This document shows positions 1 through 18,510 of a DNA stretch of 20,000 nucleotides, one piece after another. How positions within the stretch are numbered: the stretch's first letter is position 1; every line of letters starts with the position of its first letter. Position numbers and translations under genes: made by a program. This DNA is from Moniliella sp. 'wahieum' (lineage: Eukaryota), in assembly GCA_003971905.1 (NCBI GenBank), contig RSEE01000143.1, forward strand, positions 112,912 to 132,911, read 5' to 3'. Under the pieces are notes generated by a model. It did not search any database. It saw only the letters and a program-made list of their open reading frames with translations, and had not been told where the DNA came from.

Positions 1-254
1 TGGCGGCTCCGGGGGTGGCCCCAGGGGGGGCACCACGGGGGCGCCATGGCGGGAACGGATGCGGACGCCGACGGGGGGGCACCGGGGCAGGTGAGAGCGC
101 AGGAGTGGTGCGTGGCGGGCGGGCGCGGGTGCGGGTGCAGGGGGGGAGCGAGTGCTGGGGCGGGGGCGGGGGCCGGCAGGAGCGCGTCGGGCGGGAAGGA
201 GGGGGCCATGACAGGAGCCGACATGGGCAGGGAGCTGGCCATGGCGGCGGCCAT
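1..254 (-). CDS. possible 5' end of a Pro/Ala-rich protein running off the left edge
   Basis: ATG at 254 (-) opens MAAAMASSLPMSAPVMAPSFPPDALLPAPAPAP... with no stop before the window edge and many C/G-ending codons. No family recognised; GC-rich DNA produces such ORFs by chance. Confidence 0.2.
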   Translation of the reverse strand, partial: MAAAMASSLPMSAPVMAPSFPPDALLPAPAPAPALAPPLHPHPRPPATHHSCALTCPGAPPSASASVPAMAPPWCPPWGHPRSR

Positions 255-1090
255 TGCGAGCTGAGCGCTGAGAGAGGCGGTGTGGTGGTGGTGGTGCGAT
301 GCGGGAGGACGAGTGTGTGCTGCTGCGTTCGTTTCGCAGCGCAGCGCCTCTGGCGCCAACCCCTCGCATGCTCCTGCATCAGCATCCGCGCCCCAGCCCA
401 GCACGCCGCCGCCCTGGCACCCACCTCCCCGATGGGCATGTGTGACAGCATGCAGCTCACATTCAGCACGCGTCACACATCACACATCACCATGCACTCT
501 TCCGCGTCCGCCCTCGAGTGCTGCGTTACGCAGGCCAGCTCACACGTCACGCGGGCCCGCAGCACGCGGCTGTGCGTGTTGCGGGGCTGCCGCAGCAGCC
601 GCCGTGTGAGCGCACCGCACACAATGGCCGTGGGATCTGGGACGCCGTGCGCCCGCGTGGGGCTGGGCAGCCCAGCGCCCGGCCGCAGCTGCCGCCACCC
701 ACCGCCCCCCCCCCGCGCGGGGGCAGTGTGGGTGGGCACGCATCCCACACCGCCATGGCACTCCAGAACTCGGTTCAGATTGCCTTGGCACGCCCCTGCC
801 CTCGCCCATGCACCCCGTGCATGCCGTCCCATGCCGTCCCATGCCTCCGGTCCCCCCGCGCTCGCCCAGCCAGGGTCCCCGTCTCTCTTCGCGGCCCTGC
901 AGGCACCAGGGCGCACCTGCTGCTCTGGCAACGCTTACCTACCCCTGGGTGCAAGCGCCAACCGGGTAATCCTTCTCAGGCCCCGCGCGTCCTCTCGGTG
1001 ACACACCACAGCATGTCCCAGTCTCATGCAAGGCATGCGTGACGCGTGACACTGCACTCCGTGATGGCATCAATGAAAGAATGACTGACG

Positions 1091-3603: not shown

Positions 3604-3642
3604 CCATTGGCTGGCGGTCTGGTGACACGTGACGCGTGACGC
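3604..3642. promoter_or_regulatory. candidate elements in the divergent GNAT/RNR-like promoter: reverse CCAAT, CACGTG and MCB-like ACGCGT
   Basis: ccattgg at 3604-3610; gacacgt-gacgcgt-gacgc at 3624-3642 with ACGCGT at 3632-3637, about 240 bp upstream of the RNR-like ATG. Function is inferred only. Confidence 0.35.
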
Positions 3643-3873: not shown

Positions 3874-6161
3874 ATGCCGCTGCTTCGGAAACGAGGTGCG
3901 TCTCCCCTCCCTTTCCTACCTTGCATCTTTCGGCCGGGAGCACTGACCCCCCACTCATCCGCCAGACGGACGACGAGAACGCTTCTCCCCTCGCAAGCTG
4001 GAGCGGCGCCTCGAGCAGTTGGGCGCCACCCAACTGCCGCCGGCCCCAGTGGTGGCCACGCTGCAAGCAGCCGTGTACGAAGGCATGTCCACGAAGGAAC
4101 TGGACAATGTGCTGTGCCGTGCCTTGGCCAGCCACGCGCTTGTGCACCCCGAGTACGAGCGGATCGCAGGCCAGGTGGCCCTGGCTGCGCTCTATCGCGA
4201 TACGGAGGTGGCGTTCAGCCGGGTGGCTCGGCAGGCCCGCCCTGAGCTGGTACGATGGGTGGACATGTACGGGCCGGAGCTCGATGCAATTGTGCAGCAC
4301 ACCAGGGATACTCGGCTGGGGTATGTGGCGGTGCAAACGCTCTGGCCGCACCTGTTGCAGGTTCAGGGACAGGTGGTGAGCGGCCCCAACATTTTTTTCT
4401 CCGTTGTGCTTTGGCCGTTCCGCATACCAGTCTCAATGAGGTACAAGAGAGGTACGATCTCCTTTCTCTTGGCATCCTCCTCCCCCCCGGCTTGACTGTG
4501 TGGTCCAGGGACAACAACACGCTCGCAATGGAAGATGACTCGCTGGAGGGTATCTTCAACACAGTCAAGGCCGCCGCGCTCACAGTCAATGAGGGGGCAG
4601 GCTGAGTGTCTCCAACATCCGTTCCGAGGGCACATCGATCGCTGGTACCGGGGGGCGATCCAGTGGGGTGGTGCCTATGCTGCGTGTGTAATGAGGCCGT
4701 GCGGAGCAACAATGGAACGATGCGGGTATATCTCGAGCCTTGGCATGCCGACCTGCTCTCCTTTCTCGATTTAGCTAAAGCGAACGGGAAAGAGGAGCGG
4801 CGGGCGCGATGGTTGGAATATGGACTGTGGGTGCCAGACCTGTTTATGAAACGGGTCGAACAAGACTTGCCGTGGTCCTTGATGAGTGCCGACGAGTGTC
4901 CCGGGTTGCAGACGGCGGTGGGCGCTGCGTTCGAGCAACTTTACGTCCAATACGAACAGGCCGGACGGCACGACGCACCTCCCCGCACGGGACTTGTGGA
5001 ATGCCATTCTCACTGCCCAACTGGAGACGGGAGGACCGGCTCTACTCTACAAGGACGCGGCCAACAGCAAGTCCAATGAACGCAATCTGGGCACTGTTCT
5101 CGGTAGCACCTTCCATACGGACGGGACACAGGTCGCCTCTCCCTCGGCAGCGCAGGTGAGGGGGAGCATTCTCTCTCTTACTTTATTGAGGGGGCCGAGA
5201 TCAACCACACAAGCTGCACCAACGAACAAAGGAGGTGGTATCATTCCTTGCTGCCATGGGCGGGCGTGCTCTCGGCATCTCCCTCTGCGGGTTGCTGGAC
5301 ACTTTCCATCTTCTTGGCGTGGCCTACGATTCGGTTGAGGCGCGTCGTATCAACCGTGAAGTGTTTGAGACGGCGTACATGCCGCGATGGAGCGGTCCAT
5401 GGAGCTGGCCCGGCAGCATGGACCCTATAGCGGATGGGAAGGCAGTCCCATCTCCCACGGCCAGTTCCAGTTCGACCTGTGGCCGCACGCTATGCTATCG
5501 GGACGGTACGACTGGGAGCAACTGCGCACCCAGGTCATGCAGACAGGGGTGCGGCACGCTCTTCTCCTAGCTCAAGGGGGTAGCGCCGCGATAGATCCTG
5601 CCGAGTCCAATGTGCTGTGCCACACTCTCAGCAATGGGCAACAAGTGGAGTATGTGCGACCGAGTCTGGTGCGTGCGTTGATCGCTCTCGATCTGTGGAA
5701 CGAGGGGATACGAGAACGGATTCTCCTCCGGCGGGAGCATTGCCTCTCTCACCGAAGTCCCAGCCTGGATCAAAGCGGTGTACAGGACGGGGTGGGAGAT
5801 GAGGCAGCGTGCAGTCTTGGACCAGGCGATTGAGCGGGCTCCCTTTTTGTGCCAATCCCAAACTATGGCGCTCCGCTTGGCGCACCCGACGCGCGGGCAA
5901 GTGACGAGCATGCACTTTTACGGCTGGAAGCACGGTTTGAAAACAGGGTGTACCCAACTGCTTACTTCCCCGCCCTGGCGCGGACGCAGCCGGGGCCACC
6001 CATTTACTACCCTGTCGACCCGCTCGCCCTCGGTTCGCTCCCGCTCCTCCTCTTGCTCCTCATCGCGTGCATCGGCTTCAACGTATAATACCACCGCTCT
6101 GCCCGAAACAGACGCAGCTCAGTGCTCGTTTGACGAGGGTTGCCTCATGTGTGGGGGCTAA
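3874..6161 (+). CDS. RNR1: class Ia ribonucleotide reductase large (alpha) subunit paralogue, predicted catalytically inactive (~740 aa after repairing about 8 indels)
   Basis: Exon 1 is 3874-3895 and exon 2 starts at 3966. Together they give MPLLRKRDGRRER (ATP cone), ERPQHFFLR, MEDDSLEGIFNT, VSNIRSEGTSIAGTGGRSSGVVPMLRV, YLEPWHAD, GKEERRAR, LWVPDLFMKRVE, ETGGPALLYKD, TSMHFYGWKHGLKTG and C-terminal GCLMCGG-stop. All are collinear with eukaryotic RRM1/RNR1. Frame breaks near 4378, 4601, 4689, 4970, 5170, 5210, 5378 and 5727. Confidence 0.93.
3896..3965 (+). other. spliceosomal intron (70 nt) in the RNR-like gene
   Basis: GTGCGT donor, pyrimidine tract, CTGAC branch point at 3943-3947 and CAG acceptor. 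Splicing restores KRDG in frame with ORF 4019..4495. Confidence 0.88.
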
Positions 6162-7363: not shown

Positions 7364-8918
7364 TCATCTCCTCAGCAGAAGGGCGGGGAATACAATGGGT
7401 ATGAAAGAGATCGACCACGATAGTGGGGTGAAAAGAAGACTTTTGCTGGCGCTTTCAGAGGCCAGGCGTTCATAGTGCGCCCGTTGGCGAGGAAATTTGT
7501 TCTTGCTCCAGTTGAAAACGTAGATGGAAGACTTTTCAAAGCCATTCAGGGCGTACTTGGCAAACAGGGCCTCGTGTACGCGCTCTGTGGGACGCAGGAT
7601 GAAGTCCAACATGATGTTGGCCGTGGAGAGCAGTTCGGATTCAGAGTAGCCCGAGTAATGCACCATGTTGGGGTCCCAGGTCGGAGTGGTTTCAATCACC
7701 TCTCTTGCCAACCAGAACGCGGCAGCGGCAAGGAGTGAAGGCGGATGGCCGAGAAGGCGCATGTCCATGATGCTGATCTCCACCCTACATTGTGTCAGCG
7801 GCAACGAATGGCCGGGCAAAAAAATTATTAGGAGGGCACGACAGATACTTGGCAATGTTGCGAGTCTGGAGATCATACTCGTCTGCTTTGGAAATGCGAC
7901 GGAGAAAATTCAAGGGGTTGGGGTAGGACAGATCAAAGTTAAGGGTGCGGAGAATGTAGCGCTCAGCGCCCAGAATGTCTTGCTCAGATACAGCGGCCAT
8001 GTAGGCATAGTTTTCTACCGAAGGGCAAACTACCTCCTCGTACTTGGCCGCGAGGAAGGGGCTGCGGCGGCAAGCAGCTGGAGGCGATCAAGGGATACAA
8101 AGCGGACGCTGAGCATGCGATCCATCACGTTAACCGCTAAGAAAGCGTTTCGGACATGAGACGGAATTTGTGTTGTACACGGATCAGCCAGTTGATGGTC
8201 TTACACCGGTGTGCCCATGTCATATCCTCTTGCAGGTCAATGTAGTGCGGGTTGGGCAGTGTCTGGAGCTGGACACCCATCGGTCAGTCTGCCGTCTGCG
8301 TGCACGACGTGCCACAGCAAGTCCAACAAAGGACGAAGCGCGTACCTCGATCCTGCGCATGTAGGCGAAAATGTCCTGGACATACTCATACGCCATCGTC
8401 GGGTCCCTTCATCTTCCAGGTCCAGATCGGTCCAGCCGGCGTCCTTGGGGGGCAAGTCAGGGCGGCTGGGCGACTGAGGGACGTATGGGGGCAGGGGGGG
8501 CGAGGACAGGGCGGGGGCAAGAGCAGGCGCAGGAACAGGAGAAGGGGCAGGGTCAGGGTCAGGGTCAGGGTAACGAGCGCGCTTCGTCGGGCGGCTGGGG
8601 GCAGTGGTGCAAGAACGCTTTTTTCCGGCGACCTGTGGCTGCGGCGGGGTCGGGGCGTCGGGGTCGGCATTAGCCGAGCCGGGGTGGAGCGGCAGCCGTT
8701 CGCGTGCGACGGCAGCCGACGCGTTTCCAACGCTGGCGGTGGGCCCATGGGGGTCGGGGAGCCGCCGGGGGGCAGGGCCAGAGGGGCGAGCAACGTCATG
8801 GCACCCCCAGCTCCCGGTGGTGGCAGCGCGCCAGCTGGGGTGGGCGCCAGGCAGGCAGAACTTATGGCCTGGCTGCCGAGCGGCGGCCACACACGCCCTG
8901 TGCTGAGTGGGCTGTCAT
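7364..8918 (-). CDS. B-type (G2/M) cyclin, divergent; start uncertain (8918 is one candidate ATG)
   Basis: DLDLEDEG(D)PTMAYEYVQDIFAYM, intron 8345-8269, then WAHRCKTINWLIRVQHKFRLMSETL, LAVNVMDR, AAKYEEVVCPSV, AERYILRTLNFDLSYPNPLNFLRRISKADEYD, intron 7842-7785, then PPSLLAAAAFWLAR and HYSGYSESEL. These are the N- and C-terminal cyclin boxes. The N-terminus is Pro-rich with basic KKR/KRAR stretches. Confidence 0.92.
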
Positions 8919-10635: not shown

Positions 10636-13354
10636 ATGAAAAAAGTCTGGCGCCATCTCGATTCCAGGGGCAGTGTTGGCCACCACGCCTCAAACCCTCA
10701 TCCGTCTTCTCTCTCCCTTGGCAGAGTCTGCCGTAACGAATCTTTCCTTCCCTCCATCCGCCGTTATTGCTGGGCCCGATGGAAGCCTCCCTGCCATCCG
10801 ACCCGCCTCCCGCCTGCAGCGGGGCCGAGGCGCCTCCTCCTTTGCCCGTGCCTCCCTCCATGCACCCACAATATCTCTCACCCGCAGCGCGCGCAACAGC
10901 TTCCGCCACTCCTTTCTTCCTCATCAAGAGGACCGCACCGACGAAAGCCACACCTTTGTTCCGCCTCTCATTGCCGAGGTTAGGCCCGATCCAGGCGTGC
11001 CTCCCATTCTGCTGTCCCCTTTGCTGTGGTGAACTGCGTTGTCTTTGGCGAATTTCTGCTGGCTGGTGTAGCAGGTCCTTTCTCTTCAGTTTAATCCACG
11101 ATTTAGAACCGCACATGGACGACGGAACGACAGCCACATGGGCCGGCATCTTGGCTGCCGGCTTTTTCTTCTCCCAATTTCTCACCTCCCTGCTCTGGTC
11201 TGCCGCGGCTGACAAGTACGGGCGCCGCATTGTCCTTTTTACTTCGGCTGCCGGTTCGACGATTAGTGTCGTTCTGTACGGCTTTTCGCCTAGCCTTCGT
11301 TTTGCACTGGCTATGCGTCTTGTCCAGGGCTTTTTTAATGGTGCGTGGGCGTGGCCAAAGGCTCCGTCCGGTAGGTGCTTTCCCGTTCACAATATGCTGA
11401 TGTGTGCTAACATTGTGTCTGCCACAGTGACCTGACAGTCCCTGCAAATGAGGGCCAAGCCTTCGCTGTGCTCGGCTTCTGGTGGGCATGGGCGGTATGT
11501 TGGGTACGTCATTCTCCACTCCTTCATTTTCAACCACACTCACAAAACCATTGTGCATATACATCTAATATTCCAGACCCATATTGGGTGGAGTCCTAGA
11601 ACATCCGGGAGACAAGTATCCCTTCCTCGCTATTCCTCTCTTTATCACGTACCCGTACCTTCTCCCCTGCCTAGCGGCGGGGGCTTGCACACTGATGGGT
11701 GCGGTCCTGGCACCCTTTACAGGTCCCAATGGAGGCTCGAGACAGGAAGGGCTCCCCTCGGTCGAAGAATTTCACGAAGAAGATTCTGGCCACCCTATGA
11801 CGCCTAGGACCACCAGTTTGGTCCTAAGTCAGGCCCCACCACACTTTAGAAAAGCTTCAACTACCAGTCCCCTTCCACATGGGGTCCGAACTAGTTTGCA
11901 CCAGCAAGCTTTGCTGAACACAGCCGCAACTCCATGCGGCCGGAATCACAGATATTTGATGAGGACATGGAGAGTATGTGTCTTCAGCTCAAGTTCCCCC
12001 TCCCCTCCTCCTGTCCCTCGCCGGTTGGACGCTTGTCGTTTGCCCATCGCTTTGTTCTTGCAAACGATGACTTTCCCGTACACCTGTCCGATTTTTGGAT
12101 CGCATCGGCTATCAATGGAGAAGAGTCGGAACCCATTGTCTTTTTTGACGACACAACTCCATCGGCAGTGTCGTCACGAAACACATCCTTTTCTGAGGAG
12201 GAGACGGGCGCTACTGAGATACTTCAAGACTCATTTTCCCATGAGGAGGAGGAGCAGGAGGAGGATGAGGAGCAGGAGGAGGAGGAGGAGCAGGAGGAGG
12301 AGCAGGAGGAGGAGGAGCAGGAACAATAGCAGGAAGAGAGGGAGCAAGAGCAGGGCCAACAGCCTGGTGAAGAGGCGCCACTACTCCCTGCCTGGCCGCG
12401 CAACGGAACCAGAGGTGAGGCCCCACGGCTTTCGGTATTTTCCCCATTTGAGGAAAGTTCAACCACCGGTCTCCGTCCGCTTTCTTCCTGGGCCGGAGCA
12501 GGGTTAGTACGGGGCCGCGCTTGCCAAGTCTGTATCGCTACTCGGGCCTCGGCATGGAGCTTCCATGGCACAGCCGAGTCTCTTTGTCCCCAGCATACGA
12601 CATCAGGCCATGGTGGGGGAGGGAGTCGGCACAAGCGCAGGGGGGCGAGATCGTTGCCCTCCCTGAGCGACAGGTCAAGTACGGAACAATCCCTGAAGCA
12701 TCTCCACTGCCTCCTCCGCAAACTGGAACGTTTAATCGACTTCCGCTGGTAATAATCGGACATTACGCTTTGCTTGGCTTGCACGCCTCCACGTTTGATC
12801 AGGTCTTCCTTTCCTTCCTCGTGGCTCCGTGGGAGAATGGCGGACTGGGCTTGACAGCAGCTCACTTTGCTGCGCTAATAGCCTTCATGGTCATCTGTCA
12901 GTTGGGATTCCAATTTTATGTGTATCCGTACTTGGTCCGCCTTATGGTCCATTGACGCACCTTGGGATGCTGCGAGTTGGCCTGTTACTTTATCTACCGA
13001 TCTACACCCTTTTCCCGCTCCTACGTTCCCTTCCCCTTCCCGAATCAGGGTGATGGCAGTCATGGTACTTCTTTCGGCAGTGCGCTGGCTTGCAAACATC
13101 TGCGCGTTCACTGCCGTGTCGATTTTGATGAACGTACTCTGTCCGCCGGAGCTGGTGGCACTGGCTAATGGTCTAGCCCAGACCGTTTCTTCCGCCGCAC
13201 GATTTATTGGTCCTCTCTTGGGCGGAGTAGTGTGGGGACTGTCGATCGACGGCGGACCCAATGCTCACCCGTGGCCTTTCAATTTCCATCTGGGTTTTGG
13301 GTTGTGGGCCTCTTGGGCTTCGCCGGGCTGATCCAGTCATGCTGGATCCGCTGA
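10636..13354 (+). CDS. major facilitator superfamily transporter (YCR023C/ZIFL-like) with a long acidic central loop; start uncertain
   Basis: VVNCVVFGEF, WAGILAAGFFFSQFLTSLLWSAAADKYGRRIVL (MFS motif A), introns 11371-11427 and 11504-11576, GPILGGVL, YPYLLPC, HASTFDQVFLSFL, GGLGL, ALANGLAQTVSSAARFIGPLLGG, and a repaired end LIQSCWIR-TGA at 13352-13354. Contains several indels and one in-frame TAG at 12327. Confidence 0.9.
12243..12326 (+). repeat. GAG/CAG trinucleotide tract encoding poly-Glu/Gln in the MFS loop
   Basis: EEEEQEEDEEQEEEEEQEEEQEEEEQEQ in ORF 11934..12329. Confidence 0.9.
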
Positions 13355-16286: not shown

Positions 16287-18510
16287 ATGCCCGACACGCC
16301 TACAGGCCTCATTCCTCTGGCATACAAAACCATTCCTCCCCTTCATCCACATCCCACCTCACCCCCACCACCTTTCTCCCCTACCTCTCCCTCCCCTACA
16401 ACCTTCACTACAAGCAGGCTGGTCCTTGCTACACCCGTCTCTGGAAGACATCTCGCGCTGGACGCTCTACTCTCTGGTCGATCATTATGCATATTCTCTC
16501 CCGTTCCGAGCAGGCTGGCCCGCTCCAAGGGCTGCTGGGCGCCCTTTCCCTCGCCCTCGCCACCTACAAACCCACCCCCATTCTCCCCACCAACCTGAGC
16601 ATGACCGATGTGCCCCTTCCGAACGGAAACCAGGGTGGAAGTAGCTTCCAAGTCGCCGGCCCTTCGAATGGAACCTACAAGGAAATCAAGCTCCCTCACC
16701 AGAACCTGAACGAGAGTGAGTGGGGTTCCCCGTCGACCCTATACGTTCCGACAGACTGGGCTACCTCCTCCTCGGGCAACAACTTTGCCTCCACCGTGGG
16801 GCCGGGCGGGTGCAGGGTCCTGGATGCCTACACACCCACCTCTTCCCTTCCCCAAGCCGACGAATTTGCCCCCTTTGACCGGACCAGCGCAAATATTATG
16901 CGTTACCGCAAGCAAATTGCTGTCAACCTGGGCAGTTGGTACGTTCTTCGCGTCTTCACTACCCCTCCTGCCCACAGAAAACTGACTTTGACCATGCAGG
17001 TTTGTTCTCGAGAACTGGATGGTGCCTTCAATGTTTACCTGTGCCAATCATGCGGCGTCGGCAGAGCACGATGTGTTGTCCGGGTACGGTGTTTCGCAAC
17101 AGGGCTTGTCCAGCGCCAAGGCGCGTTTGGAGCAGCACTGGGACACCTGGATTAACAAGGCGGATTTTGCCAGGATGGCCTCGCTGGGCATCAACACGGT
17201 GCGCATCCCGATTGGCTATTGGAGTATGGGCACCACCAAGTGGCTCGACAATTCTCCGTTCCAGGCGTGGGTGTCCGTATATGTCAATGAGTTGCGCTAC
17301 CTCGCACGGGCGATCAACTGGGCTGCTGAATACGACATTGGTGTGCTGATTGATCTGCACGGTGCATATGGCAACCAGAATGGCCAAGCACACTCGGGCG
17401 TATCGGATGGCAATATTGGCTTCTTTACCCCGACCAACATGGATCGCACGACGCAGCTGTTGGTGCATCTGACCGAGAAGTATGCCAACGTTACCAACGT
17501 GATTGGGATTGAGACGCTTAACGAGCCCAATGGGTGGTACCGCAACCAGCTCTATCCCTGGCTGACAACAACAATGAACGCGATGCGCCAAGCCAACAAC
17601 CCACAAGCCAAGTCCTTCCCCATCTTTTTCCACGATGGTTTCAGCTTGTCTCAGGGCTCCGCCTTTGTTCAGGGTCGCAGCGACTTTGTCGTGCAGGATA
17701 ACCACATGTACTATGTGTACTCCCAGTCGGACAAGAGCACCTCTGCCAGCGGCCACACGGCTCAGGTCCAAGGCTCAGTTGCTCAAACCTTGTCCAGTAA
17801 CAGCCGTATCGCCCGTAACAATCTCATTGTGGGCGAATGGAGTTGCGCGCTGGCACCCAGCAGTCTTTCGGGCGCACGGGATGCGCACGTCTCCCAGCAG
17901 AACTTTTGCAATGCCCATCAAGCGTGTACCGGCAGAACGCTGGGGGCTGGTCCTTCTGGTCGTGGCGGTTGGAGTCGTGCGAGCAAAATGCGGGTTGGTG
18001 CTTTCAGGCGACTGTTCACACGAAGCTTATGACGAGCCCCCTTAGGGCATGACCAACACTGGCTCCAACTCAGGATCCAGTTCGTCAGGTGCGCGGAATC
18101 TGCTGCAGTCAGCGGGGAAGAACATGACGCAGGTATTGGCTGAAGTCACCAATGGTGTCAAGGCGCTTCCTGACCCTACCTTGCCCTTCTCGTCTTCTAA
18201 GAGGGGCGGGAGTGGGGCGGCCCGGGCGGCCGCGTTGGTCCGAGGCCTTTCTTCCCAGCAGGAGGCAGGAAATACGGGGTACAGCGACGGGTTCATGAGC
18301 GCCAAGATCTTTGCCTCGCAGCCTTCTGTAGCGCGGATGGGCTTCGCGGGCAATACATGGCAGACTCGTTTGCCGCACACGTGGCCCAAGGGACACTTGG
18401 GCCAGACGAGTGGGATGACTACAGCGAGCACTTTGCCAATGGCCTTTCCGATGCTGAGAACAAGATCTCCGCATTGGTAAAGCATACAGCGAATGAGGCG
18501 CGCTGTGTAA
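16287..18510 (+). CDS. glycoside hydrolase family 5, exo-beta-1,3-glucanase-like (both ends approximate)
   Basis: Intron 16939-16999 removal gives VNLGSWFVLENWMVPSMF. Also GINTVRIPIGYW, IDLHGAYG, acid/base NEP (Glu 17523-17525), nucleophile VGEWS (Glu 17835-17837), GWSFWSW, CEQNAGWCF and a C-terminal GYSDGF region. Both catalytic Glu residues are intact. Confidence 0.93.

Follow-up and report, generated by a model that had tools for sequence, protein, structure and literature searches.

Ribonucleotide reductase (RNR), the large subunit of which is a drug target, governs both the supply and the balance of DNA precursors. RNR subunits without catalytic activity are already known: yeast Rnr4 is the non-catalytic partner of Rnr2 in a beta-beta-prime heterodimer, and dead large subunits occur in viruses, where the betaherpesvirus R1 homologue is reportedly (going by the title of the 2004 paper of Lembo et al.) not a functional enzyme subunit. 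Here, we analyzed a 20,000-nt stretch of DNA (contig RSEE01000143.1 of assembly GCA_003971905.1, Moniliella sp. 'wahieum', positions 112,912 to 132,911 of the forward strand; hereafter referred to as the window), in which positions 3874-6161 (+ strand) hold a complete homologue of the eukaryote-type class Ia RNR large (alpha) subunit with a single intron. We lean towards reading this locus as a gene, intact or disabled only very recently, that encodes a catalytically dead class Ia RNR alpha paralogue, which we call alpha-prime. In the open-access full-text literature searched, we found no report of a dead alpha of cellular origin.

The putative alpha-prime resembles the canonical class Ia alphas (human RRM1, yeast Rnr1/Rnr3, and Neurospora crassa UN-24) in length, domain order, and fold; it keeps the Pfam barrel and all-alpha domains, loop 1, four specificity-site contacts, and a CxxC tail, and its N-terminal intron follows the K-R-D-G motif. 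However, it is only 37-41% identical to them, its catalytic Cys, Asn, and Tyr residues are replaced, loop 2 is short, the phosphate loop is eroded, the ATP cone falls below threshold, and the protein sits on a very long stem. Like alpha-prime, Rnr4 is a retained RNR subunit paralogue without its chemistry, and it works by pairing with an active paralogue, as we propose for alpha-prime; it is a small (beta) subunit for which pairing is established, whereas alpha-prime would be a large subunit for which pairing is a proposal. The betaherpesvirus proteins (murine cytomegalovirus M45 and human cytomegalovirus UL45) are likewise homologous to R1 over its full length and reportedly do not work as enzyme subunits, but they are viral and have been repurposed for the control of host cell death and immunity through added N-terminal motifs, while alpha-prime is a cellular protein that carries no extra domain and still has the redox tail. 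That a fungal RNR large subunit can have a second, non-catalytic role is known from UN-24, whose incompatibility function an excerpt of PMC3618301 places in the flexible C-terminal arm, with a complex formed with another large subunit. Even so, UN-24 is the only active enzyme and has a tail that is hypervariable among alleles, whereas in alpha-prime the enzyme function is apparently gone and the tail is conserved between two copies, that of the window and a relative from another organism, P0003. Finally, the bacterial NCBIfam family NF005401 ('ribonucleotide reductase-like protein') is also an RNR-like family set apart from the enzymes, and P0003 matches it weakly, but its score of 79 bits, where the cut-off is 906, leaves it outside the family.

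Replacement of the catalytic residues

We aligned the locus with 16 canonical alphas (three from fungi, six from animals, two from red algae, and five from bacteria) using MAFFT, and took fish RRM1 as the ruler, whose positions 218, 427, 429, 431, 444, 737, and 738 we take to be the human catalytic residues. The same numbering holds the residues 226, 243, 256, 263, 264, 288, and 293 named in the human cryo-EM paper PMC5819950. The following sites on the catalytic and substrate side differ from the canonical alphas:

5105..5122, + strand: finger-loop motif S-T-F-H-T-D in place of the canonical S-N-L-C-T-E (16-sequence alignment)
4510..4518, + strand: site of the first redox cysteine (Cys218, canonical SSCF), now D-N-N; the stretch around it is 8 residues short of the canonical length
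5952..5957, + strand: Thr-Gln in place of the Tyr-Tyr radical-transfer dyad (Tyr737 and Tyr738 columns, Tyr in 16/16 each); Thr-Thr in P0003
4690..4731, + strand: shortened loop 2, which is 7 residues below the canonical length and has no Gln288 or Arg293 column; same length in P0003
5579..5600 (approximate), + strand: remnant of the substrate-phosphate loop (canonical PMPTASTSQ), mostly deleted

In the finger loop, which closes the segment KSNERNLGTVLGSTFHTD (codons 5069-5122), the Asn427 column (Asn in all 16 canonical alphas) holds Thr both in the window (codon 5108) and in P0003. The column of the thiyl Cys429 (Cys in 16/16) holds His in the window (5114-5116) and Asn in P0003, and that of Glu431 (Glu in 16/16) holds Asp (codon 5120) and Glu, respectively. 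The redox pair is missing as well. Cys218, present in 15 of the 16 canonical sequences with one gap, faces a gap in the window by MAFFT, Asn (4513-4515) by hand alignment, and Ala in P0003, while Cys444 (16/16) has no counterpart in the window and is Met in P0003. No TGY codon occurs in any forward frame at 5105-5122 or 5126-5195, the nearest being an out-of-frame TGT at 5095. The substrate-phosphate loop is marked by a gap of 10 columns in the window and of 3 columns in P0003, of which residues 589-594 are skipped by the window.

A preliminary description of this locus, made from the window alone, had already named the Asn-to-Thr, thiyl Cys-to-His, and Glu-to-Asp changes at 5105-5122, the absence of TGY from all forward frames of that motif, and the want of a Cys codon for the second redox site at 5140-5165; all of these hold against the 16 canonical alphas. 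It had also set the first redox Cys opposite Asn at about 4513, which agrees with the hand alignment and with the lack of a Cys there, although MAFFT places a gap instead. The Tyr dyad, loop 2 with Gln288 and Arg293, and the PMPTASTSQ loop are losses beyond those that it recorded.

The Cys, Asn, and Glu residues affected are key residues of class I and II reductases according to section 7 of PMC3483043, and the Tyr dyad is needed for radical transfer from beta in the portion of PMC9531940 available to us. In the passages drawn from PMC5819950, Gln288 and Arg293 of loop 2 tie the effector site to the substrate. As aligned, all residues required for radical transfer and nucleotide reduction are missing from the locus: set against a working enzyme, the window copy lacks the thiyl Cys, the redox Cys pair, the Glu acid/base and its Asn partner, the stacked Tyr dyad, and loop 2.

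A second lineage with the same losses

When a 95-residue piece of the predicted protein was used as the query, P0003 (787 aa) was 75% identical to it, and all others among the matches listed reached at most 67%. P0003 represents a cluster of five sequences, nearly identical and each taken from its own Logan contig; four are 787 aa long and one is 728 aa with a later Met start, and all are uninterrupted. This relative shares the derived losses of the window copy, namely Thr in place of the Asn, the lack of Cys from all three catalytic columns, a Tyr dyad replaced (by Thr-Thr), and a loop 2 shorter by 7 residues. Moreover, of the 254 columns invariant among the canonical alphas, 40 hold a non-canonical residue that the two have in common, and the tree joins them with 100/100 support on a very long stem. 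Because the same derived losses are found in both, catalysis, as predicted from these residues, was lost before the window and P0003 lineages split. The preliminary description had suggested looking for relatives with the S-T-F-H-T-D motif; P0003 shares its Thr and its lack of Cys, but has Asn for His and Glu for Asp.

The further sequence searches added no member to the dead-alpha family. Besides P0003, nothing above 43% identity was found in a near-length search of 5.8 billion proteins, and the next-best match in a search of 1.84 billion representatives was 41% identical. A search for shorter proteins gave 38 matches, among which those of top identity, P0405 (57%) and P0420 (56%), carry canonical motifs. 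In a scan of JGI metagenomes, 35 stretches matched, and the ten relatives obtained were all 33-43% identical, which is the canonical level, and the ESM Atlas returned ordinary RNR clusters only. The dead-alpha family is so far known from two lineages.

Selection after the loss of catalysis

The window copy and P0003 are 59% identical over 716 columns, and this identity is distributed very unevenly. Blocks of 30 columns hold from 9 to 27 identities, a variance reached by none of 10,000 permutations, and identity is 70% at canonically invariant columns compared with 45-47% at variable columns. The extreme is the segment at 4602-4688, where 27 of 29 residues are identical; such a value is incompatible with free drift because a uniform neutral rate would cap identity everywhere. 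We then compared the rates of the two lineages by counting changes against the canonical consensus. At invariant columns, 20 changes were unique to the window and 16 to P0003 (p = 0.62), and at looser thresholds the counts were 41 versus 27 (p = 0.11) and 50 versus 40 (p = 0.34), none of them significant.

Since conservation is uneven and the two lineages have equal rates at canonically conserved sites, both copies have been under purifying selection since catalysis was lost, as judged by protein-level tests on one pair of lineages. The reading frame after the catalytic loss is uninterrupted throughout the P0003 cluster; that of the window has seven frameshifts and no stops. On the strength of the uninterrupted P0003, the uneven conservation, and the absence of a faster rate in the window, the broader claim that the locus represents a selected non-catalytic RNR alpha paralogue is one that we hold with good confidence, and the preference of the preliminary description for such a protein over random decay is supported; the regulator, scaffold, or dNTP-sensor functions that it put forward are candidate roles.

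Gene model, fold, and placement

The coordinates of the gene model agree with those of the preliminary description, which had recognized an RNR alpha homologue at 3874-6161. The parts of the model and its N-terminal region are as follows:

3874..3895, + strand: exon 1, consisting of ATG, 7 codons, and the first base of an Asp codon (M-P-L-L-R-K-R, then D once spliced)
3896..3965, + strand: the sole intron of the model, 70 nt, GTGCGT...CAG, with a CTGAC branch-like site
3966..6161, + strand: exon 2, the remainder of the RNR-alpha-like protein, with a TAA stop at 6159-6161, seven apparent frameshifts, and no in-frame stop
3965..4156, + strand: degenerate ATP-cone-like N-terminal region (PF03477, 21.2 bits, cut-off 25.8), in which the FDKIT motif is replaced

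The join between the exons gives D-G-R-R-E-R-F, which aligns with the canonical N-terminal K-R-D-G-R motif, and frameshift-aware alignments pick up in frame directly 3' of the intron. Read through, the locus gives approximately 735 residues in all, with 7 X and no stops. An RNR domain was matched by 7 of 8 submitted window pieces in Pfam. The pieces of the ten-stranded alpha/beta barrel domain (PF02867) cover profile positions 75-159, 164-210, 281-319, 320-445, and 447-521 of 523 with expectation (E) values of 1e-23 to 3e-4, so that a chance match is not an issue, whereas the all-alpha domain of the window stays below its threshold (21.1 bits, cut-off 28). GC content by codon position is 0.65/0.49/0.69 at the locus, and flanking non-coding DNA lies at 0.47-0.57.

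For P0003, Pfam gave 421 bits for PF02867, 37 bits for PF00317, and 16 bits for the ATP cone (PF03477). Its AlphaFold2 model has a mean predicted local distance difference test score (pLDDT) of 77.6 and a predicted template modeling score (pTM) of 0.82. Searched with Foldseek, this model found human RRM1 (3hnf_B) as the best match (template modeling score [TM] 0.92 by target length, root-mean-square deviation 2.2 A, E 1.7e-68); human RRM1 and yeast Rnr1 are the top matches (TM 0.91-0.92 by target length, about 37% identity), with the E. coli enzyme ranking behind them at 21% identity. By homology and predicted fold, the family of the locus is that of the class Ia RNR alphas, of eukaryote type. 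P0003 also scores 403.7 bits with the NCBIfam enzyme model TIGR02506 (cut-off 341), while a real fungal alpha scores 705.8 bits. As the cut-off is passed, automatic annotation would call the dead protein an active reductase alpha and could miscount RNR genes.

Because its stem branch is too long, the dead-alpha family is not firmly placed. A clade with the three fungal alphas was not rejected by the approximately unbiased (AU) test (p = 0.60), which is no proof of the grouping. The short introns with CTRAC-like branch sites and the neighboring genes (a B-type cyclin and a Xog1-like glucanase) suggest a host that fits a filamentous fungus. In the ESM Atlas, the best clusters for the GH5 glucanase neighbor came from plants, ascomycetes, and bacteria, and gave no decisive taxon. 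For the word fungal in the preliminary description, the bases are the intron style, the neighboring genes, and the AU result, in which a grouping with fungi is not rejected.

Retained parts and a possible heterodimer

Two parts of the predicted protein stand out for what they keep:

4602..4688, + strand: loop 1 and specificity-site segment, the best-conserved part of the protein, with the equivalents of Arg256, Ala263, and Gly264 (27/29 identical to P0003)
6141..6152, + strand: C-terminal C-L-M-C (CxxC) at the end of a Ser-rich tail predicted to be disordered, aligned with the canonical CxxC ends; also C-L-M-C in P0003

In the human enzyme, as far as the sections of PMC5819950 at hand describe it, the effector in the specificity site lies at the dimer interface, where it contacts loop 2 from one subunit and loop 1 from its neighbor; the residues involved are Ala263 and Gly264, Arg256, Lys243, and Asp226, and the tail is flexible. 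Four of these five contacts (the equivalents of Asp226, Arg256, Ala263, and Gly264) are kept in both the window and P0003, whereas the Lys243 equivalent has been lost. The tail ranks among the better-conserved parts of the protein (17/26, 11/16, and 9/16 identities between the window and P0003 in the last segments), and in the P0003 model its last 63 residues (725-787) have pLDDT < 50 and are predicted to be disordered.

Because the parts that would act on a partner are kept and those that act within the subunit are lost, we tentatively propose that alpha-prime may form the non-catalytic half of a dimer with a catalytic alpha. In such an alpha/alpha-prime heterodimer, alpha-prime would contribute loop 1 and the equivalents of Asp226, Arg256, Ala263, and Gly264, and would thereby hold a deoxynucleoside triphosphate (dNTP) effector at the dimer interface, while its flexible C-terminal CxxC tail could re-reduce the active site of the partner. 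The elements that act within one subunit, namely the three catalytic Cys, the Asn, and the Tyr dyad together with loop 2 and the substrate-phosphate loop, are gone from alpha-prime. Nucleotide binding by the putative alpha-prime is itself not assured, because the Lys243 equivalent is lost and the ATP cone is below threshold. More speculatively, some eukaryotes, probably filamentous fungi, might run RNR as an alpha/alpha-prime heterodimer in which the dead subunit has no active site of its own. If true, alpha/alpha-prime would mirror yeast Rnr2-Rnr4 on the large-subunit side and would add a new level to the control of dNTP pools. If alpha-prime pairs with a catalytic alpha, it would moreover offer a natural experiment that splits the trans-acting functions of alpha (its half of the effector site and the redox tail) from catalysis.

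Frame interruptions in the window

In a frameshift-aware alignment of P0003 to the window DNA, the best path has seven frame changes and no in-frame stops. The existence of this stop-free path confirms the earlier remark that nonsense substitutions are absent. The pieces of the barrel domain abut in three forward frames and leave no space for introns between them. The frame changes are placed as follows:

4376..4377, + strand: apparent frameshift 1, frame 2 to frame 1
4597..4601, + strand: apparent frameshift 2, frame 1 to frame 0, adjoining a G5 run; frame 1 would otherwise stop at the TGA at 4603-4605
4689, + strand: apparent frameshift 3, frame 0 to frame 1, one base opposite a Phe codon of P0003
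4969, + strand: apparent frameshift 4, frame 1 to frame 2
5189, + strand: apparent frameshift 5, frame 2 to frame 0, adjoining a G5 run, its placement uncertain within about 5159-5192
5373..5374, + strand: apparent frameshift 6, frame 0 to frame 2
5726, + strand: apparent frameshift 7, frame 2 to frame 0

An in-frame TGA at 5184-5186 was considered as a sign of decay and rejected, given that a frame change a few bases downstream avoids it with a score at least equal.

Similar breaks occur in two neighboring genes. The first is a B-type cyclin gene (7367-8283, - strand) with Cyclin_N and Cyclin_C domains and one ordinary intron at about 7785-7847. Its Cyclin_N pieces (profile positions 10-52, 52-80, and 82-127) lie within 3 nt of each other in three frames, and the cyclin box crosses frames at about 8143 and about 8059 (two 1-nt breaks). 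The second is a major facilitator superfamily (MFS) transporter gene (11100-11800, + strand) with two GT..AG introns, at about 11372-11427 and about 11507-11576; the frame of this gene is interrupted at least twice, by 1-nt breaks near 11347 and near 11488. A third neighbor, a glycoside hydrolase family 5 (GH5) exo-beta-1,3-glucanase, is encoded by an open reading frame (ORF) of 346 unbroken codons (16992-18029, + strand). Overall, about 11 small indels and no in-frame stops were counted in the approximately 4.4 kb of coding sequence examined (RNR-like, cyclin, MFS, and GH5).

We judge it likely that the seven frame breaks of the RNR-like locus are indel errors of the assembly rather than mutations, because the cyclin and MFS neighbors are broken alike and because neutral decay would be expected to bring far more substitutions than indels, some of them making stops.

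Alternative explanations

Several observations weigh against a selected alpha-prime encoded by an intact gene in the window. As deposited, its frame is broken seven times, and the GH5 neighbor is unbroken over about 870 nt, so that indel noise is not uniform. The 11 break sites show no homopolymer enrichment (runs of at least 4 near 3 of the 11, with about 3 expected), and so lack the pattern that homopolymer sequencing errors usually leave. The window copy also has in-frame deletions absent from P0003 (14 residues, P0003 467-480, and most of the phosphate loop) and a longer tip branch (1.62 versus 0.96 for P0003). The loss of the Lys243 equivalent belongs here as well, together with an ATP cone below the Pfam threshold in both copies. 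Lastly, only two lineages are known, so the selection argument amounts to a single comparison at the protein level.

Much of this would suit a true pseudogene, in which the dead-alpha family is selected in the organism of P0003 while the window copy has recently been disabled by real 1-2 nt indels and is decaying: seven frameshifts fall within 2.2 kb, and the extra in-frame deletions, the longer tip branch, the break sites without homopolymer enrichment, and the intact GH5 neighbor are all in its favor. Nevertheless, what a decaying pseudogene should show was not observed. No in-frame stop occurs across about 735 codons, the rates of the window at canonically conserved sites equal those of the uninterrupted P0003, conservation is non-uniform, and the codon-position GC periodicity is intact. 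In addition, like breaks are present in the cyclin box (two) and the MFS gene (at least two), which are unlikely to be pseudogenes too. We consider recent inactivation of the window copy a serious but unlikely alternative.

The alpha-prime reading is also to be weighed against a selected non-catalytic protein whose role is unrelated to pairing with a catalytic alpha, either a stand-alone dNTP-binding sensor or a factor of non-self recognition or cell death that acts through its tail, as in Neurospora UN-24. The retained specificity-site contacts and the long Ser-rich disordered tail ending in CxxC would fit such roles. However, the specificity site lies at the dimer interface in the pages of PMC5819950 available, so a sensor must still dimerise; the tail is well conserved between the window and P0003 and not hypervariable as reported for un-24, and UN-24 itself is an active enzyme and not a dead paralogue. 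A role of this kind thus seems doubtful, and less plausible than recent inactivation.

It is very improbable that the whole 20-kb region is a degenerating duplicate (e.g., an accessory segment) in which all genes are pseudogenes and every break in the RNR-like, cyclin, and MFS genes is genuine. Frame breaks do affect three of the four neighboring genes examined, but the at least 11 indels are accompanied by no in-frame stop in the approximately 4.4 kb of coding sequence, the window lineage shows no rate excess, and the GC content is normal with no AT-rich mutation signature. A still-working reductase with unconventional chemistry or other residues can practically be dismissed: P0003 does score above the TIGR02506 cut-off (403.7 versus 341 bits), but neither copy has retained the three Cys, the Asn, the Tyr dyad, loop 2, or the phosphate loop, and these include key class I and II residues as listed in the relevant part of PMC3483043.

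Upstream sequence and other features of the window

Upstream of the RNR-like locus, CACGTG is directly followed by ACGCGT, a hexamer like the MluI cell-cycle box, at 3626-3637 (+ strand), 237 nt before the ATG. ACGCGT occurs 8 times in the window, where 3.6 occurrences would be expected, and in 5 of 200 shuffles the count is as high; a single such site upstream of the RNR-like ATG is therefore weak evidence for G1/S control.

Among solved structures, the GH5 ORF is best matched by Candida Xog1 with E 1.5e-32 over chain residues 23-298 of 399; the rest of the protein was not located at either terminus. Long ORFs without a Pfam match lie in the first 1000 positions of the window (1-1000), which are very GC-rich (73%) and carry G-rich tandem repeats at 117-173. 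In the downstream part of the MFS gene, a GAGGAG (acidic) tandem repeat extends over 12243-12354.

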